Position numbers and translations under genes: made by a program | Source of the DNA: Candidatus Magasanikiibacteriota bacterium | GTDB taxonomy: Bacteria; Patescibacteriota; Patescibacteriia; Magasanikbacterales; GWA2-37-8 | DNA length: 64,000 nt | Assembly (NCBI GenBank): GCA_016182085.1 | Contig: JACOYB010000004.1 | Span: 147,923 to 211,922 of the forward strand | Direction of reading: 5' to 3' | The notes under the pieces: model-generated | Database searches by the model: none | What the model was told of the DNA's origin: nothing | The model's input: the letters and a program-made list of their open reading frames with translations, nothing else | Shown here: one piece after another, positions 1,983 to 57,062 of the stretch | Layout of the letters: every line of letters begins with the position of its first letter | How positions within the stretch are numbered: the first letter of the stretch is position 1

Positions 1983-2010
1983 TCGGGAAGTGTTAAAAAT
2001 AAACTACAAC

Positions 2011-2035
2011 AAAACCGCTAAAACAGCGGTTTTTG
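2011..2035 (+). terminator. Rho-independent terminator after asnS
   Basis: Hairpin AAAACCGCT-aaaac-AGCGGTTTTT followed by a T-run. Confidence 0.6.
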
Positions 2036-2067
2036 TCTATTTTTAGATAAATTTTTGTCTTGCCATA

Positions 2068-2096
2068 TTGACAAAATGATAAATTTATGGTAAGAA
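2068..2096 (+). promoter_or_regulatory. Host-type sigma70-like promoter upstream of high-GC cassette 1
   Basis: TTGACAAAA -35, 17-bp spacer, TAAGAAT -10-like. Followed by a roughly 110-nt mid-GC leader with hairpin GGCTCTCCggttGGAGAGCC and a GGGGAGG RBS 7 nt before the ATG at 2209. Confidence 0.4.
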
Positions 2097-2208
2097 TGTT
2101 CTCAGAAGGCTCTCCGGTTGGAGAGCTGCTTTGACATAAAACTGCGTCCAGGGGGTACTAACTTCCGGACGTTTGTTCACAAATTCACCCTTCACGGGGA
2201 GGTCTGTC

Positions 2209-4563
2209 ATGGGATTTAACGACTTTTTCGCTGATAGTGCGACTCGTAGTCACCAGGGCGGTTCCACCTCGGATACCGCCAAATCCGGATTCAGTCCGGC
2301 GCCGGGCAGGACAAGCCTTACGTCCGATCTTCCGGCGGCAACGCAGTGGGATCGGGAAGCGGAGCGAGCGATCGGCCGTGCAAATCGGCACTTGGATGAG
2401 TTGCCCGAATTGATTCGGGCGGCCAAGGACACCTTTGGAAATGTCCAGTTCCAAGAAGCCAAAGCGGCCATTGGCCAACTGGAGAACAAGCTCTCGCTCG
2501 CTCAAGATAACGCGGGCAGAGCCAAAGGGATTCTGGGTCATGGCAGTGTTGAGAATAAGGCGCTGCTGGAACAGCTGGATATGCTGGAGCAGCGGATTCA
2601 ATCCGCCAAAGAAGATGTGGCGCCGATTCTGGCACGGAAGCCGCCAGAGACCAAGAGTGTTCCATTCTCCCTTCCTGGGGTAGATGAGGAACCTGACGCG
2701 GTTGGTAAATGGGAGAAAGAGCAGACTGCTACCCAGGATTCCTGGGAGACCACGCAGACTGCGATCAATTCATTGCCACCCGATGAGCGAGAGCCCGTTG
2801 GGTACGAGCAGGAAAGCTGTCGGGTTCGAGGCCCGGTGGCCGACAATGCCTTTGAGGGGATCAAGCTATTCATCAAGGCTCGAGCCGAGGATGATATTGA
2901 TCACGCCTACGACATTACGTATCCTTCCTTCTTGGTCGGACCAGGCAAGGTTGGTCCGTACAAGCTGGATCCGGCGCTCAAAGGCGGAAAGGTAGTGTTC
3001 TTCCTGGCTCACCATTCGGAGCGAGGTTACCCCGAGTGGGTCATCGGCCCCGATAACGTGGAAGAGTTCAGGCAGAACATTGACGCGTACGTTGGTGCGG
3101 CTCGCACGGCGCTGCCAGGAAGCAAAAAAATTCCTGGCTCACAGGCCGATGGGGCCGACAAGTTTCCCCACGACCCCTCAATGCTTGAGCTTGAGGCGTT
3201 TGGCAAAGCGCCTTACCAGCAACAGCTGGGTGCAGGACAGAGCGAAGCCCCCTTCAACCAGCCGAAGGAACACTCCGGAATGTTCGGGGTGATGTGGGAT
3301 GGACTCACCGAAGGGATGGATGAAGCCAATGGCGGCAGTTCTGCTGTTGGCGCGCGTAATGCGCATATTCGTCTGACTGACTACGTGGAGAAGGCTCGGG
3401 AAATCGCCCGTCAACTAATGGCGGACGTAAACTCGGGAAAGATGCAGCATCTGGATGCTCGCGGCGCAGCCGTGGCCGGTCGCAACGATTTGATGCGAGG
3501 TGTGAGAGAGCGGATGTCACCATCCGCGCGCTATACCTCACAGAAGATCAAGGCAGACGATGGCATCTCCGAAGGCGCCATGGTCAAGAAGAAGGTGCCG
3601 GATCTCCTGAATGCGGCGCGAAAGGGCGGGGATGGTATGCGAGTTCTTGGTCAGGCAGGTAGTCCGGAAGATCTCCGCAAGTTCTTGGGAGAAGAATCCG
3701 AAGCCTGGTCCAAGTATCTCAAGGCTCTTGAGGCTGGCGAACCTAGCAAGTCCGTAACCTCAAAAGCTGTTCAGGAGATGAGTCAGCAGCCGTCGGTCAG
3801 CCGTGCCATCATCAATTCTGCTGGCAAGAACAACCAAACGGTAACCAGGCTTGTAAAGCTGGGTCGTGTGGCTGGTGCGGCAGGGGCCGCAGCCGGTGTT
3901 GTTGATATGGCTCAAACCATTTACAACGCCGAAGATGGAGAGCGACTCCACGTGGCTGCGGGTGAGCTCGGTGGATTTGTAGGTGGAATTATTGGCGCTG
4001 AACTTGGCGCCATGGCCGCAGTCTGGGTTGCGTCACTGATCATTTCTGGTCCGGCTGCGCCTGTCGTGCTGGTCGTGTCGCTTATCGGCGGCATGGTCGG
4101 CGGAGCGATTGGCGCGCAAGCTGGGCACGAAATGCCGAACATGGCAACTGCGGCGCTTGGCGAAGGCCTTAACGCGGTGGTTACTCCCGGATCCGGGCAA
4201 GCCGGTGGCTATGCTGGTATGCACCAGCGCAGCTCCCAGGCTGGCAAGGACAAGATGAACACCGCGGAACGGTTGCGTCAGATCCAGGACCAGCTCGATT
4301 CGGATATCAGGCAGGCTGAAACCGAAATCAAGAAGGCCAAGGATCGGGACGATCTTGACCGTTGGCAGTTGCAGCGGCTTAACCTGCTGAACTATCGCGA
4401 CCAGGTCGGCGGTATCTACCAGCTCCTGCGGGCTGGCAAGATCAACGAGACCCAGGTCTACGAACTGATGGGTGAAGAGGTCGTCAAACCCGAACCTCAG
4501 GAGTGCGCTCCTGAAGAAGAATCGGAAGGCGGGGCCAATGAAGTTTCTGAAGTTGAGCGGTAA
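2209..4563 (+). CDS. Hypothetical large protein on a high-GC island: coiled-coil N- and C-terminal regions plus a glycine-zipper transmembrane segment
   Basis: 784-aa ORF (ATG at 2209 after GGGGAGG; the ORF track extends upstream to a TTG at 2173). The locus is about 60% GC in a roughly 40% GC genome, with GC-rich third codon positions. Gly-zipper region AGAAGAAAGVV..GGFVGGIIGAELGAMAAVWVASLIISGPAAPVVLVVSLIGGMVGGAIGAQAG. Flanking coiled coils. No recognisable catalytic motif. Confidence 0.6.
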   Translation: MGFNDFFADSATRSHQGGSTSDTAKSGFSPAPGRTSLTSDLPAATQWDREAERAIGRANRHLDELPELIRAAKDTFGNVQFQEAKAAIGQLENKLSLAQDNAGRAKGILGHGSVENKALLEQLDMLEQRIQSAKEDVAPILARKPPETKSVPFSLPGVDEEPDAVGKWEKEQTATQDSWETTQTAINSLPPDEREPVGYEQESCRVRGPVADNAFEGIKLFIKARAEDDIDHAYDITYPSFLVGPGKVGPYKLDPALKGGKVVFFLAHHSERGYPEWVIGPDNVEEFRQNIDAYVGAARTALPGSKKIPGSQADGADKFPHDPSMLELEAFGKAPYQQQLGAGQSEAPFNQPKEHSGMFGVMWDGLTEGMDEANGGSSAVGARNAHIRLTDYVEKAREIARQLMADVNSGKMQHLDARGAAVAGRNDLMRGVRERMSPSARYTSQKIKADDGISEGAMVKKKVPDLLNAARKGGDGMRVLGQAGSPEDLRKFLGEESEAWSKYLKALEAGEPSKSVTSKAVQEMSQQPSVSRAIINSAGKNNQTVTRLVKLGRVAGAAGAAAGVVDMAQTIYNAEDGERLHVAAGELGGFVGGIIGAELGAMAAVWVASLIISGPAAPVVLVVSLIGGMVGGAIGAQAGHEMPNMATAALGEGLNAVVTPGSGQAGGYAGMHQRSSQAGKDKMNTAERLRQIQDQLDSDIRQAETEIKKAKDRDDLDRWQLQRLNLLNYRDQVGGIYQLLRAGKINETQVYELMGEEVVKPEPQECAPEEESEGGANEVSEVER

Positions 4564-4975
4564 TCGTACCCAGAATCGGGCGACCTTGTGGATGGTTGAC
4601 GTGGGATTGTTCCTGTTCGGAATGTTTGCCGCGTTTACCACGTATGTGTTAGTTCCCCAACTGAACCGCTCGTTGCCTGTGTGGACACTGGTATTCTTGC
4701 TGCCAGTGCTAACATTTACGGTACGAGTCCAGTTCGTCAAATCTGAGAACGGCGTAATTGCAAAATTCATCTACTTCTGGCTGTTTGTTCCGTATAGGTT
4801 CAGTAGTCAGGAAGTGGTGGATGTAGCGACAAGCTGTAGTTCAGATGATCTGGACAAAGAAGATGAGCTGGGGTTGATGAGGAGGGACGGAAACCACAAC
4901 TGGATTGAGTGCTACGGCGCAAATGCCGTGGCTCAGTGGATACGAAAATCCACCGGTTTGAACCTCGAACCGTAG
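4538..4975 (+). CDS. Hypothetical small membrane protein (2 predicted TM helices) on high-GC island 1
   Basis: ORF overlapping or abutting the 3' end of the large island gene. Possible starts are ATG 4538, GTG/ATG about 4592, or ATG 4472 in the track. Hydrophobic segments LFLFGMFAAFTTYVLV and LVFLLPVLTFTV. Same high GC as its neighbour. Confidence 0.4.
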   Translation: MKFLKLSGNRTQNRATLWMVDVGLFLFGMFAAFTTYVLVPQLNRSLPVWTLVFLLPVLTFTVRVQFVKSENGVIAKFIYFWLFVPYRFSSQEVVDVATSCSSDDLDKEDELGLMRRDGNHNWIECYGANAVAQWIRKSTGLNLEP

Positions 4976-5030
4976 TTGCAAGAGGAGGTCAGTCGTCTGG
5001 TCGGAGCAATCCGAACAGACGCGAAGTTTC

Positions 5031-5069
5031 AAAGCCGGCGGCTAGTATAGCGCCGGCTTTTGTATTTTT
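5031..5069 (+). terminator. Rho-independent terminator closing high-GC island 1
   Basis: AAAGCCGGCGgctagtatagCGCCGGCTTTTGTATTTTT. The sequence composition returns to AT-rich host DNA immediately after. Confidence 0.6.
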
Positions 5070-5079
5070 ATAGTTTGGA

Positions 5080-5108
5080 TTGACAAAGAGGTAGGTGTAG
5101 ATTATAAT
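5080..5108 (+). promoter_or_regulatory. Promoter for tRNA-Leu
   Basis: TTGACA (5080-5085), 17-bp spacer, TATAAT (5103-5108), about 20 nt upstream of the tRNA 5' end. Confidence 0.55.
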
Positions 5109-5127
5109 TTGTCATACATATAAATTA

Positions 5128-5209
5128 GCCGAAGTGGCGGAATTGGTAGACGCACACGACTCAAAATCGTGCGGAGAAATCCATGAGAGTTCGATTCTCT
5201 CCTTCGGCA
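5128..5209 (+). tRNA. tRNA-Leu (anticodon CAA), class II tRNA with long variable arm, CCA not encoded
   Basis: GCCGAAGTGGCGGAATTGGTAGACGC D-arm. Anticodon stem CACGA/TCGTG with loop CTCAAAA. Long variable arm. T-arm GAGAGTTCGATTCTCTC. Acceptor 3' strand CTTCGGC plus discriminator A. Followed by terminator hairpin AAAGACCCGCGAGTGCGGGTCTTTATT (5218-5244). Confidence 0.85.
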
Positions 5210-5338
5210 CAAATAATAAAGACCCGCGAGTGCGGGTCTTTATTATTTTGGTTGCTCTAGAGAATTGAACGCCGGAGTGGTGCTGAGTTTTTTTATTAAA
5301 TTGTTTGTGGTATAATATTTTTGTCTTATACATTATTT

Positions 5339-6112
5339 ATGGCTGAAGTAATCGCAGTAGTTAACCAAAAAGGCGGGGTAGGCAAAACCACTACGGCCGT
5401 CAATTTAGCCGCAGCTCTGGCTGAAAGCGGCAAATTTGTATTGCTTGTTGATTTGGATCCGCAGGGAAATGCCACCTCCGGATTAGGCATAAAATATCAA
5501 GAATTGGAACAAGGATTGTATCACAGTCTTGCCGGCCAAACTCGTTTGCACGACGTGGTACACAATACTGCTCATGCGGGGTTGCGGGTAGCTCCGGCTA
5601 CCCCAGATTTAGCAGGTGCAAATGTGGAGCTGGTAAATGTAGAAGGCCGTGAAAAAAAATTAGATGAAATTTTATCTGAAGTGTCTCATGCCTACGATTA
5701 TATTATCATTGATTGCCCGCCATCTCTGGGAATTTTAACCCTCAATGGCCTTATCGCTGCCGATCATATTTTGATTCCGGTGCAGGCTGAATACTATGCC
5801 TTGGAAGGATTGGGACAATTGCTTAAAACTATAGAACTTATACGAAGCAACTTAAAACCGGAGTTAAAAATTTTGGGCGCTGTGCTTACCATGTATGATT
5901 CTCGCAACAGCTTATCCGAAGAAGTAATGAATGATCTTTATAAATTTTTCCCAGATAATATTTTTCGTTCGGTTATTCCGCGCACCGTGCGGCTGGCTGA
6001 AGCGCCAAGTTTTGGCCAAAGTATTTTCCATTATGACCCAAGCGGTAAGGCTGCCAAAGCATACGAAAGGTTGGGCAAAGAATTTTTAGAAAGGTTTGAA
6101 AAAGAAGAATAA
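5339..6112 (+). CDS. parA: Chromosome partitioning ATPase ParA/Soj
   Basis: Deviant Walker A NQKGGVGKTTTAVNLAAALA. ParA-family length. TATAAT at 5311-5316 upstream. The ORF track extends to a TTG at 5321. Confidence 0.9.
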   Translation: MAEVIAVVNQKGGVGKTTTAVNLAAALAESGKFVLLVDLDPQGNATSGLGIKYQELEQGLYHSLAGQTRLHDVVHNTAHAGLRVAPATPDLAGANVELVNVEGREKKLDEILSEVSHAYDYIIIDCPPSLGILTLNGLIAADHILIPVQAEYYALEGLGQLLKTIELIRSNLKPELKILGAVLTMYDSRNSLSEEVMNDLYKFFPDNIFRSVIPRTVRLAEAPSFGQSIFHYDPSGKAAKAYERLGKEFLERFEKEE

Positions 6113-8612: not shown

Positions 8613-8690
8613 TGTCATTCCCGCCACAGCGGGAATCCAGGTGATTCGTTCGATCGGATACTAGATTCCCGCTGTGGCGGGAATGACAAC
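8613..8690. repeat. Cargo-less MITE-like palindromic element: two inverted copies of the GTCATTCCCGCCACAGCGGGAATCCAG hairpin repeat separated by a 20-bp spacer
   Basis: Copy 1 at 8613-8640 and inverted copy at 8661-8690. Each copy is itself a hairpin (ATTCCCGC-N4-GCGGGAAT). Same family as the terminal inverted repeats of the GIY-YIG element at 56693-57062. Sits in the relA promoter region. Confidence 0.8.
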
Positions 8691-8700
8691 GATTTAAAAT

Positions 8701-8730
8701 AAAACAAACGTGAATATTCACGTTTGTTTT
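8701..8730 (-). terminator. Perfect 30-bp palindrome, likely terminator of gyrA
   Basis: AAAACAAACGTGAATATTCACGTTTGTTTT, immediately downstream of the gyrA stop on the minus strand. Confidence 0.5.
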
Positions 8731-8765
8731 ATAAATATTATTTTTATAATTACTAGGGACGAGGC

Positions 8766-30214: not shown

Positions 30215-30362
30215 CTGGAGCGTTCTTTAAGTAGGGACCCTCGCTTATCCTACCTGTAATAGGGGTAGTGACCGCGGGGTCCTGTTTGTTTTTATAAACA
30301 TTTGTTATACTAAAAATCAGAATAATTTAAATATTTATTATTTAATTCACTCACTTCATATT

Positions 30363-32949: not shown

Positions 32950-33003
32950 TTTTTGGCAGTATTTGAGGGAACGGTAGGGGGTACGCCGTTCCCGCCTCAT
33001 GAC

Positions 33004-33032
33004 TTGACAAAATAATGCCTGTTTAGTATAAT
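33004..33032 (+). promoter_or_regulatory. Consensus sigma70-like promoter upstream of rpsA, with structured leader
   Basis: TTGACAAAA (33004-33009), 17-bp spacer, TATAAT (33027-33032). The leader contains palindromes ATATGGGCTAAAGCCCATAT (33125-33144) and AAGTTAAATACATTTAACTT. Confidence 0.55.
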
Positions 33033-33203
33033 TTAGTTAATAAAATTTAACGTAAGCCCTCCCAATTTAGAGGCGGGCACCTATGCCGATTTAATTGGCA
33101 GGGATAAAAAGGTTTTTTTGTTTATATGGGCTAAAGCCCATATATACTCATTCGTTCGCAATAAGTTAAATACATTTAACTTATTGACTCACTCATTTCG
33201 AAT

Positions 33204-37363: not shown

Positions 37364-37456
37364 TTTAATTTCTTACCAGTTATAAGCGAAGCTTTAAATT
37401 ACGTCGGGCTTCGAAAAAAGAAAATACATTTTCTTTTTTACTCACCCCTAGAAATT

Positions 37457-39187
37457 ATGAGTGATTTTCCTTCTATAAATAGTTTGCTTGGCCAGTCAAA
37501 GTCAAAACCTTCCGGAGCGGCTGCAAGTCCTGCGGGCGCCAGTCAAGATGCGGGCAAAAAGTTTGAGAAAAAAATTCATGAAATAGACCTTAAAGCCAAA
37601 GAAGAGTTGGTGGCAAAAAATGCCGCCAGTCTTGGTTTGGGGTATATAGATTTATCGGCTTTTCCCATTACCGCCGAAGCGCTTAAAACAATTTCCGAGA
37701 AAGATGCTACGGAACAAAAAGTAATTTGTTTTTTTAATGTTCCCGGAGAAATACGGCTGGGCTGCGTGGAGTATAATGACGCGATTAGCGAGCTTGCGTA
37801 CCAATTAGGAGAAAGCCACCATGCCAACACGCAAGCATATTTAATATCTGAAAATAGTTTGGCCAAAGCCATGAAGCTATATGCCAATTTGCCAGTCATT
37901 AAACCGGTAACCAAAGATATTAATATTACCGACGAGGAATTAGAAAAATTTAAATCCGGCGTTATAGATTTTAGAAGTTTAGAAGCTCAGTTTTTAAATG
38001 TTTCTATCAGTGATATTTTAACTTTAATAATTGCTTCGGCACTGAAGGTAGAATCATCCGATATTCATGTGGAAGCCGAGGAAAATGGCATCATGGTACG
38101 GTATCGTATCGATGGTATTTTGCATGACGTGGCCACCTTGCCCAAAGAACAGTGGAAAAAATTTGTTTCCCGCATAAAACTCTTGGCGGCGTTAAAAATA
38201 AATATTACGGATCGGCCGCAGGACGGCAGGGTAACATTAAAACTATCTTCAGGAAGTTTGGATGTGCGTGTTTCCACCATGCCGACTATTTACGGGGAAA
38301 GCGTGGTAATGAGAATCTTGCATAGCGGCAGCAAGGGCGTTACGTTTGATGAACTCGGGTTGCGCGGTGATGCGTATGCAAAATTGAAGAAAGAAGTAGA
38401 ACGACCAAATGGCATGATAATTACCACCGGTCCGACCGGTTCGGGCAAGACCACAACTATGTACGCCATTATGCGCACTCTCAATAAACCGGGGGTAAAA
38501 ATTATAACTTTGGAAGATCCGGTAGAAATTAAAATTGAAGGCATCAATCAAAGCCAGGTGGATGCCAGCCGCGATTATACTTTTGCCAAAGGTCTGCGCA
38601 GTTTGTTGCGCCAAGACCCGGATATTTGTTTAGTAGGTGAAATCAGAGATTTGGAAACAGCTGAAATCGCTATTCAAGCGGCCTTAACCGGACATTTAAT
38701 ATTATCTACCATTCATACCAACAGTGCTTCCGGTACTATTCCACGCTTCTTGTCTATGGGGGTAAAGCCATTTTTGTTGGCGCCGGCCTTGAATTCCGTA
38801 ATTGGTCAAAGACTGGTGCGAAAAATTTGCTCACATTGCCAGGAAGAAGATAGGCTAACGTCAGAACAAACAGAGCGCGTCATGAAAAATTTGGAAACAT
38901 TACCCGAAGCGGAAAAAAAGAACGTTGATTTTAAAAAGCTAAAATTTTTTAAAGGCAAAGGCTGTGAAGAGTGTAGTGGTTTGGGCTATAAGGGCAGAAT
39001 CGGAATCTATGAAATTTTCACCATGAACAAGGAAATTGAACAGGCAATTTTAGGCAGTCAGATTTCTGAGTATGCTATCCAGGAATTAGCCGTAAAAGGT
39101 GGTATGGTCACTATGGTGCAAGACGGCTTGCTAAAAGCCCTGGATAAAATTACAACCGTAGAAGAAGTCTTCAGGGTAATTGAATAA
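37457..39187 (+). CDS. Type II/IV secretion (type IV pilus) ATPase, GspE/PilB family
   Basis: N-terminal GSPII_E_N-like domain. Walker A GPTGSGKTTT. Asp and His boxes. C-terminal tetra-Cys motif CSHC...CEEC. Confidence 0.85.
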   Translation: MSDFPSINSLLGQSKSKPSGAAASPAGASQDAGKKFEKKIHEIDLKAKEELVAKNAASLGLGYIDLSAFPITAEALKTISEKDATEQKVICFFNVPGEIRLGCVEYNDAISELAYQLGESHHANTQAYLISENSLAKAMKLYANLPVIKPVTKDINITDEELEKFKSGVIDFRSLEAQFLNVSISDILTLIIASALKVESSDIHVEAEENGIMVRYRIDGILHDVATLPKEQWKKFVSRIKLLAALKINITDRPQDGRVTLKLSSGSLDVRVSTMPTIYGESVVMRILHSGSKGVTFDELGLRGDAYAKLKKEVERPNGMIITTGPTGSGKTTTMYAIMRTLNKPGVKIITLEDPVEIKIEGINQSQVDASRDYTFAKGLRSLLRQDPDICLVGEIRDLETAEIAIQAALTGHLILSTIHTNSASGTIPRFLSMGVKPFLLAPALNSVIGQRLVRKICSHCQEEDRLTSEQTERVMKNLETLPEAEKKNVDFKKLKFFKGKGCEECSGLGYKGRIGIYEIFTMNKEIEQAILGSQISEYAIQELAVKGGMVTMVQDGLLKALDKITTVEEVFRVIE

Positions 39188-51696: not shown

Positions 51697-52026
51697 ATGC
51701 CTAAAAAATCCAACATGCCGACCAGCCCTGCTGTTCACTGGTTGGGCAAAAAAGTGAGCTCGACCAGGCAAAATCAAGAAAATGAGAAAGATGAGTTGTA
51801 TAACAGGCGTTTGCAAATCGCGACCAGAATAAAACAGGCAAGTTTAAAACCAAAAATGTTTTTCAAAGCTAATTTGGAAGATGATTTGCGCGTTTTTGAA
51901 TATGTCGTGCAGAAAATTGACCGGCTTTCGGGAGAAGTATTTTTAAAAAATGAACGTGGCACGGTACGAAAACTTTCGGTATTTGATAAGCTTTTTGGGC
52001 CTAAAGCAGAGACGCGGACTCGTTAA
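51697..52026 (+). CDS. Hypothetical small protein
   Basis: 109-aa basic protein, no recognisable motif. Convergent with htpX. Confidence 0.3.
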   Translation: MPKKSNMPTSPAVHWLGKKVSSTRQNQENEKDELYNRRLQIATRIKQASLKPKMFFKANLEDDLRVFEYVVQKIDRLSGEVFLKNERGTVRKLSVFDKLFGPKAETRTR

Positions 52027-52901
52027 GCCATCTCCCTTAACTTTTTTATACGGTCTTCTATCGGCGGGTGAGTAGAGAAGAAACTGGCAAATTTTTTTCC
52101 AGAAAAGGGGTTGGCAAAAAATAAATGCGCCGTGGCTGTGTCTGCTTTAATCATTGGTTGATTTTGCGCGGCGATTTTTTCTAAGGCCTTAGCCAAACCT
52201 TCGGGGTAGCGGGTAAGCAGCGACCCGGAAGCATCGGCCAAGTATTCGCGGCGTCTGGAAATTGCCAATTTTATAATTTCAGCTACCACCGGAGCTAAAA
52301 TGCCAAAAAATAATCCGACAATCATAAGTATTACTCCGGCATTGCCATTGTCGCGGTTGCGCCGGCTGGACCTGATAGTATGAAAAAATATATTGGAAAG
52401 CATGGAAATCGCGCCTACCAGCACTACCACCAAAGTCATAAATCTGATGTCGTAATTTTGCACATGCGACAGTTCGTGAGCCAATACGCCTTCTAATTCT
52501 TCGTTGGTTAATTGCTCCAAAGCGCCGCGAGTGACGGCAATAGTGGCTGTTTCCGGATTACGGCCTGTGGCCAAAGCGTTTATGGCTGAATCTTCAATAA
52601 TATAAATTTTGGGCGCGGGCAGGCCGGAAGTAATACAAAGATTTTCTACCATTCTATAAAGATAAGCATTTTCTTCTTTGGTAATCGGTTTGGCGCCGGT
52701 AGACCACAAAGCGATTTTGTCTCCTTTAAAATATGAAATAAGGGTCATGCCAAAAGAAAATCCAACGGCAAAAAGTACGCCGCCGTAATTGCCAAGGCCG
52801 CTGGATATATCAAAAAGATAACCTAAGCCGATGATGATAAGAATAAACACCATCATTAGCGCCACCGATTGTCTTTTATTGGAGGTTATTTGAGAGTACA
52901 T
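52023..52901 (-). CDS. htpX: Zinc metalloprotease HtpX (M48 family)
   Basis: HELSHVQNYD (HExxH). TM helices. HtpX-like length and C-terminal region. Confidence 0.85.
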   Translation of the reverse strand: MYSQITSNKRQSVALMMVFILIIIGLGYLFDISSGLGNYGGVLFAVGFSFGMTLISYFKGDKIALWSTGAKPITKEENAYLYRMVENLCITSGLPAPKIYIIEDSAINALATGRNPETATIAVTRGALEQLTNEELEGVLAHELSHVQNYDIRFMTLVVVLVGAISMLSNIFFHTIRSSRRNRDNGNAGVILMIVGLFFGILAPVVAEIIKLAISRRREYLADASGSLLTRYPEGLAKALEKIAAQNQPMIKADTATAHLFFANPFSGKKFASFFSTHPPIEDRIKKLREMA

Positions 52902-52903
52902 AT

Positions 52904-53341
52904 TTATTTTGTAGCTGCTATTTCCATTTCAGCTTTATTTTTTTTCGTGTCTATTTCTATAAAAATTAAAGGCCAGACAGGTCCAGTAAAATTTTTGTTT
53001 TGGTACCAATGACCGACTAAATTTTTGGAGCCTAGTAAAGGTTGGTTGTGGGGTTCGTCCTGTAAAGAGAGGTCAACATATTTCGCCACGCCTGTTCTTA
53101 GGGAGTACAATATTATATCGGATGGTTTAACGCCTGATTTAAGAGCTTGGTTATAAGGTTCAAATAAAATTTTTTTGTGTGGTGGTAAATCTTCAGGGAG
53201 ATATATACCGTATTTGCCCTCGGCTTCAATTTTTTTGCGCATATTTTCAAGTGCCTGGGCATTTGGATTAGCCGCTTCTCTATATAAATTATCAGCTCCT
53301 TCGTGTTTGTTCATATTATTATAACTCTGTTTTAACACCAT
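52904..53341 (-). CDS. Hypothetical protein, paralog A of a tandem pair in the lemA-htpX operon
   Basis: 145 aa. The segment GIYLPEDLPPHKKILFEPYNQALKSGVKPSDIILYSLRTGVAKY aligns with LQIPKDLRPGDEFTVLNDFLDAMKIKKAEQFKPEDIIFYSKELGILKF of the next ORF. Confidence 0.5.
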   Translation of the reverse strand: MVLKQSYNNMNKHEGADNLYREAANPNAQALENMRKKIEAEGKYGIYLPEDLPPHKKILFEPYNQALKSGVKPSDIILYSLRTGVAKYVDLSLQDEPHNQPLLGSKNLVGHWYQNKNFTGPVWPLIFIEIDTKKNKAEMEIAATK

Positions 53342-53726
53342 TTTTTGTAATTGATACTACATCAAATACATTATCGCTATGATAATAAGATACTTGTAGC
53401 GCGTTTTCCTTACCTGCGTCTGCCCAGGAATATATCGTTGTTGGTATGTTTTCTATAATAAAAGTATCATCGTGTAAATCCGACTTGTAGTTAAATTTTA
53501 ATATTCCAAGTTCTTTAGAATAAAAAATTATATCTTCAGGCTTAAACTGTTCTGCTTTCTTTATTTTCATTGCATCCAAAAAGTCATTAAGAACAGTAAA
53601 TTCATCGCCTGGTCTTAGATCTTTGGGAATTTGTAAGCCAATCTTATCCTCCTTTGCAATTTCTCGCTGCATCTCTTCCAAGGATTTTTTTATGACGAGA
53701 TTTTCGTGCCGCTCTTTTTTATCCAT
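53319..53726 (-). CDS. Hypothetical protein, paralog B of the tandem pair
   Basis: 135 aa. Aligns with its downstream neighbour. Overlaps it by 23 nt. Sits between lemA and htpX. Confidence 0.5.
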   Translation of the reverse strand: MDKKERHENLVIKKSLEEMQREIAKEDKIGLQIPKDLRPGDEFTVLNDFLDAMKIKKAEQFKPEDIIFYSKELGILKFNYKSDLHDDTFIIENIPTTIYSWADAGKENALQVSYYHSDNVFDVVSITKNGVKTEL

Positions 53727-53729
53727 AAA

Positions 53730-54296
53730 CTAGAATTTCACCTGTACATTTTGTTTTTCACCTTCGGCGGCTTGGAAGAATTCGTATTTTGTAAATCCTA
53801 AAGAGTTGGCGATAAGGTTGGTAGGGAAGGTTTCAATTTTAATATTGAAGTCGCGCGTATTGCCGTTGTAGAAGCGGCGGGAAGCCTGTATTTTATTTTC
53901 GGTGTCGCTAATTTCATCTTGAAGTTGCAAGAAGTTTTGGCTAGCTTTTAGGTCTGGGTAATTTTCGGTTACGGCAAACAAAGTTTTTAAGGTGCCGGAA
54001 AGCATGTTTTCGGCATTTTCACGTTCTTTTAGAGTGGCATTTTTGTTGTCGTGTACAGCCATGGCCGCAGTGCGGGCTTCGGTAAGTTTAACCAAAGTTT
54101 GCTGTTCGTGAGTCATGTAGCCTTTTACTGTTTCTACTAAGTTTGGGATAAGGTCGTAGCGGCGTTTGAGCTGGACATCTATATCACTAAGAGCTTCGTT
54201 TACTCTGTTTTTGCCGCGGATTAATCCGTTGTATACGGCAATTAGCCACACAGCTACCAAGGCTAAACCGGCGAGAATTATATATAGGGCGGACAT
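53730..54296 (-). CDS. lemA: LemA family membrane protein
   Basis: N-terminal TM then LIRGKNRVNEALSDIDVQLKRRYDLIPNLVETVKGY, a typical LemA signature. Confidence 0.85.
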   Translation of the reverse strand: MSALYIILAGLALVAVWLIAVYNGLIRGKNRVNEALSDIDVQLKRRYDLIPNLVETVKGYMTHEQQTLVKLTEARTAAMAVHDNKNATLKERENAENMLSGTLKTLFAVTENYPDLKASQNFLQLQDEISDTENKIQASRRFYNGNTRDFNIKIETFPTNLIANSLGFTKYEFFQAAEGEKQNVQVKF

Positions 54297-54351
54297 ATAT
54301 GTTTGTTATTTATGAATTAAGCAGTGCCTATTGGCTTTTTTATGCAGATAT

Positions 54352-54419
54352 TATATGATATGCGAAGTGAGTGATAAGTAAAAATTAATTTTTACTTATC
54401 CGAACGAGAATATCATATA
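54352..54419. promoter_or_regulatory. Nested palindrome (perfect 28-bp core) in the divergent lemA-htpX / rseP promoter region; candidate operator
   Basis: Core GATAAGTAAAAATTAATTTTTACTTATC (54373-54400) flanked by outer arms TATATGATA ... TATCATATA (54352-54419). Confidence 0.45.
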
Positions 54420-54486
54420 CCTTAGTATATGATATAGCTATAGAAAATACAAGGTTTTGAACTGGTTTATTTAATTTACAAATTTT

Positions 54487-55659
54487 ATGGTAACTCTGCT
54501 TATTTTTATCGCCGTTCTGGCCGTACTCGTCATCTCCCATGAATGGGGTCATTTTGTGGTTGCGCGCAAAAGCGGCATGAAAGTCTATGAATTTGGCTTT
54601 GGCTTTCCGCCGCGACTTTTTGGCATACAAAAAATAAAAGATGAGCAAGGTAACAGTAAATGGCGTTTTATCTGGGGCCGAAAAGCAGATGAAGAAGCGG
54701 GGGAAACCGTATATTCTTTTAATATTATTCCGCTGGGCGGCTTTGTGCGTATTAAAGGCGAAGACGGCCAGGAAGTTGGGCCAGACAGTTTTGCGGCGCA
54801 AAAAGCCTGGAAAAGAGCAGTTACGTTAATGGCCGGCGTTGGCATGAATATTGTTACGGCTTTTATTTTACTTTCGGTTGGTTTTATGATCGGCGCGCCG
54901 CAGGCCGTAGATAGTTTGCCCCCAGGCACTACCGCGGAAAATAGACACATAGAAATTATAGAATTAATTGCGGATAAGCCAGCAGCCGCAGCCGGTCTGC
55001 AATCCGGCGATATTATCGTAAGTTTAGATAATCTGCAAAATCCGAGCGTGAAAGCTATGCAGGAATATGTAGATGCTAATAAAAATAAAGATATAAAAGT
55101 TACAGTGAAACGAGGAGATAACACTATAGAAAAAAATATTCGCCCGTTTGTATATGAAGATACCGGAAAAGGCGGTTTGGGCGTAAGTCTTATAGAGGTC
55201 GGGCTGGTACGCTATCCGTGGTATAGGGCTATTTATTACGGCTTGATCATGACCGGATTGTATTTAAAAGAAATTTTGTTTTCATTTTATTATCTAATTT
55301 CCGGATTATTTGCCGGCGCGCCGGTGGGTGAATCTTTGTCTGGCCCGATAGGCATAGCGGTCATGACCGGTAAAGTCGCCAAATTAGGATTTAGTTACTT
55401 GTTAAATTTTATGGCTTTGTTATCGCTTAATCTGGCTGTGTTAAATGCCTTGCCCATCCCGGCGCTTGATGGCGGAAGGCTGCTATTTTTGATCATCAGC
55501 AAACTTAAAGGCAAGCCGGTTGAACAGCGGTATGAACAGATAGCGCATGGAGTTGGATTTGTACTATTAATTTCTTTGGTTGTGTTAATCACCGTAAAAG
55601 ACCTGGGGAATTTTAAAGGATTGTTTGTTAGTTTATTTCAAAAAGTGATCGGATCATAA
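54487..55659 (+). CDS. rseP: Site-2 protease RseP (M50 zinc metalloprotease) with PDZ domain
   Basis: HEWGHFVVAR HExxH in the first TM. Central PDZ. C-terminal LDGG motif (ALDGGRLLF). Confidence 0.9.
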   Translation: MVTLLIFIAVLAVLVISHEWGHFVVARKSGMKVYEFGFGFPPRLFGIQKIKDEQGNSKWRFIWGRKADEEAGETVYSFNIIPLGGFVRIKGEDGQEVGPDSFAAQKAWKRAVTLMAGVGMNIVTAFILLSVGFMIGAPQAVDSLPPGTTAENRHIEIIELIADKPAAAAGLQSGDIIVSLDNLQNPSVKAMQEYVDANKNKDIKVTVKRGDNTIEKNIRPFVYEDTGKGGLGVSLIEVGLVRYPWYRAIYYGLIMTGLYLKEILFSFYYLISGLFAGAPVGESLSGPIGIAVMTGKVAKLGFSYLLNFMALLSLNLAVLNALPIPALDGGRLLFLIISKLKGKPVEQRYEQIAHGVGFVLLISLVVLITVKDLGNFKGLFVSLFQKVIGS

Positions 55660-56692: not shown

Positions 56693-57062
56693 GTTGTCAT
56701 TCCCGTCGCAGCGGGAATCCAGTCGATATGAATCAACGCAAAAATTATTATGTATATATTTTGGCAAGTAAAAGAAATGGCACTTTATATATTGGAGTAA
56801 CAAATAGTTTGATCAGACGAATTTATGAACACAAGCAAAATTTAATTGCTGGGTTCACAAAAAAATACGGAGTTCATAATCTAGTTTATTATGAAACTTA
56901 CGATAGTATAGACACTGCGATTGCCAGAGAAAAAGAAATTAAAAAATGGAGAAGAAAACCTAAAATTGACCTAATAGAAAAAGATAATTTAAATTGGCGT
57001 GATTTGTATAAGGAATTAAATCCAGCTTAGCGACTGGATTCCCGCTGCGGCGGGAATGACAA
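56693..57062 (+). mobile_element. Compact GIY-YIG nuclease element bounded by about 30-bp terminal inverted repeats of the GTCATTCCC...GGGAATCCAG hairpin family, inserted between pheS and pheT
   Basis: Left IR GTTGTCATTCCCGTCGCAGCGGGAATCCAGTCG (56693-56725) and right IR CGACTGGATTCCCGCTGCGGCGGGAATGACAA (57031-57062) are reverse complements with 1-2 mismatches. The ORF occupies the whole interior. Confidence 0.8.
56728..57030 (+). CDS. GIY-YIG domain nuclease (small YhbQ/COG2827-like)
   Basis: YYVYILASKRNGTLYIGVTNSLIRRIYEH (GIY...YIG), conserved R, E in EKEIKKW. 100 aa. Confidence 0.85.
   Translation: MNQRKNYYVYILASKRNGTLYIGVTNSLIRRIYEHKQNLIAGFTKKYGVHNLVYYETYDSIDTAIAREKEIKKWRRKPKIDLIEKDNLNWRDLYKELNPA

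Follow-up and report, generated by a model that had tools for sequence, protein, structure and literature searches.

The DNA examined here is a 64-kb window of a contig of at least 410 kb from a metagenome-assembled genome (MAG) of Candidatus Magasanikbacteria, within the candidate phyla radiation (CPR, Patescibacteria); all positions refer to this window unless a related locus is named. Its minus strand carries lemA, two small genes that we call X1 and X2, and htpX, and on the plus strand an rseP-like gene diverges from lemA across a spacer of 190 bp (54297–54486) that contains a perfect 28-bp palindrome (Table 1). This study concerns the X proteins and the palindrome. All five open reading frames (ORFs) listed by the first-pass annotation, comprising lemA, two genes without a known family, htpX and rseP, are present, as is the palindrome at 54373–54400, nested within longer arms (54352–54419) in the 190-bp spacer. 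The tight packing that it described also holds, whereas the overlap it placed between X1 and X2 does not. X2 probably starts at 53314 rather than at the upstream ATG at 53341, because this start agrees with the N-terminus of the family and with the NCBI gene call (136 aa), and therefore the two genes are separated by 4 nt. The gaps between lemA, X1, X2 and htpX are 2–4 nt, which supports co-transcription, and the four genes form one operon.

The LemA protein matched the full length of PF04011 (200.1 bits at a cut-off of 26.2, model positions 1–149 of 149), which places it in the LemA family; its hydrophobic windows begin at residues 1–10. The htpX product has the M48 domain, the HEXXH motif and the several transmembrane segments of HtpX proteins, with hydrophobic segments at approximately residues 9–37, 150–176 and 184–215. 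It matched the NCBIfam model of HtpX (NF003425) with E=1.3e-96 and 323 bits, which does not reach the equivalog cut-off of 355, and it is best described as HtpX-like rather than as a certified equivalog. The translated rseP gene contains the HEWGH and LDG (ALDGG) motifs, in agreement with an RseP-like M50 protease. The two small proteins are identical to HYT15_01230 and HYT15_01225 of NCBI.

Table 1. Features of the lemA–htpX region and repeat copies in the window, with X genes and rseP–lemA spacers of related loci (L numbers).
Feature	Position	Strand	Description
109-aa ORF	51697–52026	+	No family match; convergent with htpX, overlaps the htpX end by 4 nt
htpX	52023–52901	−	M48 zinc metalloprotease, HELSH motif; PF01435, E=1e-31
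X2	52904–53314	−	136 aa, soluble, no transmembrane segment; profile E=1.5e-58; AlphaFold2 (AF2) model with predicted local distance difference test (pLDDT) of 76.6
X1	53319–53726	−	135 aa, divergent paralog of X2; profile E=4.7e-42; family hidden Markov model (HMM) E=5.1e-27 among window ORFs
lemA	53730–54296	−	N-terminal transmembrane helix, RGKNR, then LemA domain; PF04011, E=2e-59
Predicted rseP promoter	54331–54359	+	TTGGCT-17-TATGAT; −35 at 54331–54336, −10 at 54354–54359; architecture conserved in relatives
Extra segment	54352–54425		74 nt, no counterpart in related spacers
Repeat copy A, core	54367–54404	−	TTCG-[palindrome]-ACTCAC, lemA sense
Perfect 28-bp palindrome	54373–54400		GATAAGTAAAAATTAATTTTTACTTATC; 14-nt arms
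Second hairpin	54410–54435		11-nt arms, 4-nt loop
Predicted lemA promoter	54424–54452	−	TTGTAT-17-TATACT; −35 at 54447–54452, −10 at 54424–54429; architecture conserved across 7 spacers
rseP-like site-2 protease	54487–55659	+	M50 (PF02163, E=6.5e-52) and PDZ_2 (E=1.3e-7); divergent from lemA
Repeat copy B	33123–33192	+	Upstream hairpin 33123–33144; TTCG-[28-nt palindrome]-ACTCAC 33155–33192
Repeat copy C	37410–37445	+	TTCG-[26-nt palindrome]-ACTCAC
L001			X genes between lemA and htpX: 188 + 135 aa
L002			rseP–lemA spacer 81 nt
L003			rseP–lemA spacer 87 nt
L060			rseP–lemA spacer 548 nt
L082-84			X genes after lemA: 147 + 135 aa
L085			X gene after lemA: 122 aa; rseP–lemA spacer 80 nt
L086			X gene after lemA: one two-domain fusion of 251 aa; rseP–lemA spacer 109 nt
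L087-89			X gene after lemA: 194 aa; rseP–lemA spacer 279 nt (L087)
L092			X gene after lemA: 211 aa; rseP–lemA spacer 118 nt
L093			Four X copies after lemA: 206, 152, 220 and 132 aa
L094-95			X genes after lemA: 209 + 124 aa; rseP–lemA spacer 302 nt (L094)
L096			X gene after lemA: 199 aa

X1 and X2, which align in BLASTP with 32% identity over 84 aa (E=9e-10), are paralogs outside the recognised families, as had been proposed. Single-sequence word-index searches with the two proteins returned only themselves and one relative (P0003), and the family emerged only when a three-sequence profile was run exhaustively against 1.84 billion cluster representatives. This search yielded 71 representatives at E≤1e-3, 31 of them at E≤1e-10, and members of the family are 89–353 aa long. 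They are characterised by an N-terminal M-x(2-6)-GGPYRE-x-DPNA motif, a subsequent helix with ALExMRKxIEAEGK, and further on the motif GIxLPExI...PEDI(V/I)(F/L)YSxATGILKY (consensus PEDIxFYSxATGILKY), followed by a beta-rich region. The N-terminal G-x-[YF]-[RK] motif occurs in 45 of the 75 X proteins scored, and X1 is without the GGPYRE motif. About one third of the members end in an additional coiled coil rich in K and E, and several consist of two fused domains.

The X proteins have neither a transmembrane segment nor a signal peptide. Among the members, no 19-residue window reached the hydrophobicity of a membrane helix, except in one marginal hit of 1873 aa. Structure prediction, which had been suggested in the first-pass annotation, gave AF2 models of X2 (predicted template modelling score 0.70) and X1 (pLDDT 66) with a common order of elements: a disordered N-terminus, a helix, short strands, a helix and a five-stranded sheet region. 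Foldseek searches with the X2 model against PDB and BFVD and with the X1 model against PDB gave no significant match to a known fold (best E=0.04–0.4, template modelling (TM) score below 0.4). Likewise, no match was found in Pfam (X1, X2 and 34 members), NCBIfam, PADLOC, PHROGs or the PDB sequences. We conclude that X is a real, previously undescribed family of small soluble alpha/beta proteins.

The genomic context of this family is strict. The family HMM was run on all ORFs of every recovered locus and of the whole window, and X was located directly after lemA in 10 out of 10 recovered contexts (the window and the nine loci or groups of loci with X genes in Table 1), as one, two or four copies or as a two-domain fusion. 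In all ten contexts the X genes have the same position and strand and a spacing of 2–10 nt, which bears out the proposed tie of the small ORFs to the LemA neighbourhood. In every context checked, htpX comes next after X; the L087-89 sequences end at X or at a partial unidentified ORF. The synteny with the window extends over a wider block (rseP<- ->lemA-X-htpX <-109-aa ORF <-phosphomannomutase ->clpB), and the divergent rseP/lemA arrangement is conserved in this clade. The HMM detected no X in any of 80 other CPR loci, which a LemA query had recovered from GTDB species representatives, and no further match in the window.

The pair of genes that surrounds X is much more common. In 69 of the 80 CPR loci htpX lies downstream of lemA, with a gap of at most 150 nt in 49 of them, and the lemA–htpX pair is also widespread in lactic acid bacteria and streptococci. 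The CPR pair consists of the same two genes as in the window, with identical order and strand, whereas the window and a narrow clade have the soluble X family between them, in one to four copies. X thus appears to be a lineage-specific insertion into a widely conserved gene pair, followed by tandem duplication or fusion, in one CPR subclade. Other small genes occur between lemA and htpX in L018, L023, L033, L034, L041 and L061, and in several CPR genomes the slot is occupied by a conserved peptide of ~55 aa with a C-terminal membrane helix (MFSF(F/I)IKEASAAGLGTEFAPQAS...).

One explanation for this pattern might be that the X genes are unrelated passengers, for instance a fast-evolving selfish, immunity or defence cassette, in a permissive slot, and have no role with HtpX. 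Consistent with a permissive slot, other CPR genomes hold small transmembrane peptides, SPFH, DUF559-like and pyrG-like genes at this position. The variable copy number of X (one to four) and the fast divergence of its paralogs (25–35% identity) would also suit passengers. However, X was never found elsewhere, its placement is the same in all ten contexts, and it has been retained across a divergence of LemA down to ~80% and of HtpX down to ~73% identity. Moreover, X had no match to defence or phage families in PADLOC and PHROGs. We therefore regard the passenger explanation as unlikely.

Instead, the operon packing, the exclusive synteny, the paralog pairs, the fusions and the coiled coils suggest an oligomeric X that acts together with LemA and/or HtpX. 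We propose that oligomers of X would work on the cytoplasmic side of the membrane as accessory subunits of a LemA/HtpX quality-control module, where they could serve as adaptors, modulators or pseudosubstrates. The catalytic domain of E. coli HtpX is cytoplasmic, which is assumed to hold for the HtpX of the window as well. The LemA domain would also be cytoplasmic, because RGKNR follows the single helix (positive-inside rule). Docking of X would probably involve the conserved N-terminal G-G-P-Y-R-E motif, which is predicted to be disordered. The first-pass annotation had suggested the pair as accessory components of a LemA/HtpX module, and the strict synteny fits this suggestion, although the mechanism is our own inference.

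A more specific version is that X is a lineage-specific cytoplasmic regulator of HtpX, either an adaptor or a pseudosubstrate inhibitor, which docks by its GGPYRE motif and forms oligomers by way of tandem paralogs, fusions or coiled coils, with LemA as the membrane scaffold that keeps regulator and protease together. This version is tentative, and we think it less likely than not. If true, it would provide the first functional handle on the coupling of LemA and HtpX. To our knowledge, the very widespread LemA has no known function and no mechanism accounts for its coupling to HtpX; a literature search on LemA with HtpX found no mechanistic paper. The X family, soluble and found only between the two genes, offers a natural bait for learning what the LemA/HtpX module does.

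Two known arrangements resemble this locus. LemA is usually followed by tandem proteins with a TPM domain (PF04536), which typically carry a signal peptide and a membrane anchor. The window likewise has LemA followed by two tandem paralogous small proteins, but X has no Pfam TPM match, no signal peptide and no membrane anchor. An assignment of X to the TPM domain was rejected, as the best PDB fold match had an E of 0.076 and a TM score of 0.29. SPFH/Band-7 proteins, for instance HflK/C with FtsH, are known to modulate membrane proteases. Here, the likeness is a protein encoded beside a membrane quality-control protease. In L068 the lemA–htpX slot itself contains an SPFH/Band-7 gene (about 4587–5348 of that locus, PF01145, E=2e-41), which hints that this position serves protease modulators. 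In contrast to the SPFH modulators, X is not an SPFH protein, is soluble and has a different predicted fold.

The palindrome in the rseP–lemA spacer is surrounded by further inverted repeats. Outer inverted arms of 10 nt lie at 54352–54361 and 54410–54419. The second hairpin, which the first-pass annotation had not described, has one arm at 54410–54420 that also pairs with 54352–54361, and another at 54425–54435. Markov shuffles of the window (n=30) contained about one inverted repeat with arms of at least 10 nt per window, and no arm above 13 nt. In an independent Logan assembly (L098) every base of the spacer is the same, and hence the palindrome is not an assembly artefact. It is absent from all eight related spacers (L002, L003, L060, L085, L086, L087, L092 and L094), among them that of the nearest relative with X. 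L094, whose LemA is 84–86% identical, is one of the eight.

Comparison with the relatives indicates how this difference came about. In six relatives, two sigma-70-type promoters, the lemA-sense one (TTGnTn-17-TATA(C/A)T) and the rseP-sense one (TTGGCT-17-TATAAT), lie so close together that their −10 boxes, on opposite strands, share 2 nt. In the window both predicted promoters are intact and lie ~74 nt apart. The extra segment starts just past the shared −10 core, and the 10-nt sequence ATATCATATA is duplicated at 54352–54361 and 54426–54435, the latter copy within an arm of the second hairpin; the opposite arm of this hairpin is a third, inverted copy. Compared with L086, the window is colinear save for a net gain of 81 nt. 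As judged from the sequence, the palindrome lies in a genome-specific insertion that splits the overlapping divergent promoters. Copy A of the repeat described below is thus present in the window and absent in relatives. Its flanking direct repeat of ATATCATATA, with an inverted copy inside, makes microhomology or template switching equally possible as origins. As a general promoter motif, GTATATGATAT was rejected, since its other three matches in the window are inside genes.

The best reading is that, in this genome alone, a copy of a hairpin repeat landed precisely where the −10 boxes of the lemA and rseP promoters overlap, and doubled their 10-nt core. Transcripts of lemA would then start near 54417 and those of rseP near 54366, and both would read through the insert. 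Each mRNA would gain a stable hairpin at its 5' end, and the two 5' untranslated regions (UTRs) would overlap antisense over ~50 nt. In the lemA sense the predicted fold reaches −22.5 kcal/mol (z −4.7); for the rseP sense, the values are −26.1 kcal/mol and z −3.4. The insertion would be a natural case of a hairpin repeat that splits divergent promoters without destroying either, and turns a back-to-back arrangement into a face-to-face one.

The same spacer differs among relatives in other ways. L092 carries another hairpin insert (TGTCATCCTGAA...TTCAGGATGACA), and GC-rich nested palindromic repeats (CCCTCCCCTATTAGGGGAGGG, GCTTCGCTCGGCGAAGC) lie between rseP and the lemA promoter in L087 (4033–4200) and L094 (1353–1560), where the spacers are otherwise AT-rich. 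The rseP–lemA spacer seems to be an insertion hot spot, because L087, L094 and L092 carry different hairpin inserts.

The palindrome is not the only one of its kind in the window. A direct scan for palindromes with similar flanks showed that the pattern TTCG-N24-32-ACTCAC has four matches, against 0.4 expected, at three sites (copies A, B and C). All three sites enclose perfect AT-rich palindromes of 26–28 nt and are oriented with the downstream gene. In copy B, 17 nt separate the end of the palindrome from the ATG of the ribosomal protein S1 gene; in copy C the distance is the same, to the ATG of a gene encoding a PilB/GspE-like ATPase. Copies A and B have in common a TCGTTCG left flank, ATAAGT/ACTTAT arms and an ACTCAC..TTCG.ATAT right flank, and upstream of each lies a hairpin whose loop is TAAG or TAAA. 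The arm sequences differ among the three copies while the pairing is perfect in each, which points to a hairpin structure or to a generating mechanism at the DNA level, and not to sequence-specific binding of a protein.

These features recall repetitive extragenic palindromic (REP) sequences and bacterial interspersed mosaic elements (BIMEs), as well as repeats that resemble miniature inverted-repeat transposable elements (MITEs). Such repeats share with ours a short palindromic core, conserved flanks, several intergenic copies, presence or absence at an orthologous site (copy A) and a flanking direct repeat; A, B and C are dispersed intergenic copies with a common core and flanks. Unlike REP and MITE repeats, the window repeat has perfect AT-only arms that differ between copies, it was found in three copies, these have a fixed orientation, and two of them have a fixed distance to the start codon. 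No copy was found in ~670 kb of other CPR loci, and Rfam 15 gave no match to an RNA family, with generic hairpin hits of at most 21 bits against gathering scores of 70–100. The palindrome forms the core of a small hairpin repeat, of which the 64 kb contain three copies or more.

Two more sites resemble this repeat. A possible degenerate fourth copy at 30322–30362, upstream of a Germane-domain gene (30363), has an imperfect AT palindrome followed by ACTCACTTCATATT-ATG; it has no stable predicted fold (z = 0.0) and is unconfirmed. A GC-rich TTCG-hairpin-ACTGAC at 4994–5021 on the minus strand is likewise unconfirmed as a repeat copy.

The first-pass annotation had read the palindrome differently, as a good candidate for a shared operator of a membrane or cell-envelope stress regulator, and had named its conservation in relatives and further copies of its half-site as checks. 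In this explanation, a dimeric transcription factor would co-regulate rseP and the lemA–htpX operon under membrane stress. A perfect dyad between divergent genes, in an arrangement that is itself conserved, would suit an operator, as would its position just downstream of both predicted main promoters and its overlap with the −35-like TTATCA of a candidate secondary lemA promoter (10/12 match). However, neither check supported the claim. The palindrome is conserved in none of the eight orthologous spacers and lies inside the 74-nt extra segment. The exact half-site has no other copy in the 64-kb window; at two or fewer mismatches it has 10 matches, of which two are the palindrome itself, and the remaining eight are not above chance (5.5 ± 2.3 expected). 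Furthermore, the palindromes of the related copies differ in sequence and stand before the S1 and PilB-like genes, which are unrelated to envelope stress, and no regulator gene was recognised among the adjacent ORFs with Pfam and NCBIfam. An operator is therefore highly improbable, and the palindrome is of local interest but defines no stress regulon. The 26-mer of the palindrome core, ATAAGTAAAAATTAATTTTTACTTAT, also occurs in one metagenome contig (L090, 5482–5507) and one viral contig (L091, 6861–6886). As related sites these two were rejected: they are unrelated AT-rich intergenic sequences with different flanks, and probably represent chance or independent hairpins.

Alternatively, the TTCG-hairpin-ACTCAC element might be, instead of a neutral or mobile repeat, a selected cis-acting RNA element of the 5' UTR, either a stem-loop that stabilises the mRNA or a translational control, which was recruited to lemA and rseP. 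Stabilising 5'-terminal stem-loops are found in the ompA leader of E. coli and the aprE leader of B. subtilis. The hairpin predicted to lie at the start of the lemA and rseP transcripts, or close to it, is similar, but it came by insertion and is absent in relatives, and its start sites are predicted. The common orientation of the three copies with their downstream genes and the identical spacing to the ATG in B and C favour an RNA element. So does copy C, in which ACUCAC is predicted to pair with AUGAGUG at the start region. Stems that differ in sequence and yet pair perfectly are consistent with selection on structure, and the predicted folds beat those of shuffled sequences, though for C the margin is small (z = −2.24; 6 of 200 shuffles do equally well). 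Conversely, copy A lies 76 nt from the lemA ATG, not 17. Neither the lack of an Rfam match nor the lack of copies in the other CPR loci fits a selected RNA element well, three copies are too few for a proper covariation test, and perfect Watson–Crick arms without G–U pairs fit a DNA-level origin equally well. We consider this explanation doubtful, although it is more plausible than an operator.

In copy C, the predicted pairing (37440–37463) brings the ACUCAC after the hairpin onto AUGAGUG over the PilB-like start codon, which may cause translational occlusion. At copy B, the S1 gene has a perfect consensus promoter (TTGACA-17-TATAAT, 33003–33031) 166 nt upstream. The long S1 leader, within 33003–33203, includes other hairpins besides copy B; it has no Rfam match and might function in autoregulation as a structured leader, or else as a small RNA.

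Taken together, the explanation that we judge best, and hold with some confidence, is that X is a subunit of a LemA/HtpX module and that the palindrome is an inserted hairpin repeat. Several points weigh against it. The closest GTDB relative, L002, whose LemA is 79% identical, has no X; its lemA is followed by an inositol-monophosphatase gene, without htpX in the 413 nt recovered after lemA, and therefore the LemA/X/HtpX module is not obligatory. No sequence or fold homolog in the libraries searched points to an activity of X. We infer a physical interaction of X with LemA or HtpX, and an effect on proteolysis, from gene order and sequence features, and the cytoplasmic topology of LemA is deduced from charge distribution only. 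With respect to the palindrome, the repeat was counted in 64 kb of a contig of at least 410 kb. No transposase or REP-associated tyrosine transposase (RAYT) was seen in the window, in which the genes are not all annotated and no search was aimed at these enzymes. The 10-nt target duplication could be microhomology of the element ends with the AT-rich −10 region, and the transcription start sites of lemA and rseP are predicted ones. Finally, copies B and C both have exactly 17 nt between palindrome and ATG, which suggests that a cis-regulatory role has been selected and that the repeats did not spread neutrally.

A few other elements of the window deserve mention. The 109-aa ORF that converges on htpX had no match in Pfam, NCBIfam, PADLOC or PHROGs; an ORF of 103–109 aa is kept at this position in L082-L085 and L092, and L086 has a 190-aa ORF there. 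At 2001–5000 the G+C content is 0.49–0.55, against ~0.42 elsewhere. This stretch had no rRNA or Rfam match, and its 796-aa ORF (2173–4563) had no Pfam match.

Between pheS and pheT lies a GIY-YIG gene of 100 aa (56728–57030; PF01541, E=3e-17), bracketed by 35-nt inverted repeats consisting of TTGTCATTCCCGTCGCAGCGGGAATCCAGTCGATA and its complement (56694–57062). A gene-less copy of this pair of inverted repeats, with 28-nt arms and a 20-nt centre, is found at 8613–8688 between gyrA and a relA/spoT-like gene. It is adjoined by a perfect 34-bp palindrome, ATAAAACAAACGTGAATATTCACGTTTGTTTTAT (8699–8732), downstream of gyrA and upstream of the relA/spoT-like gene, with flanks that differ from those of the TTCG/ACTCAC family. 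By their sequence, the GIY-YIG gene with its repeats and the gene-less pair resemble a small mobile element with a miniature version derived from it.

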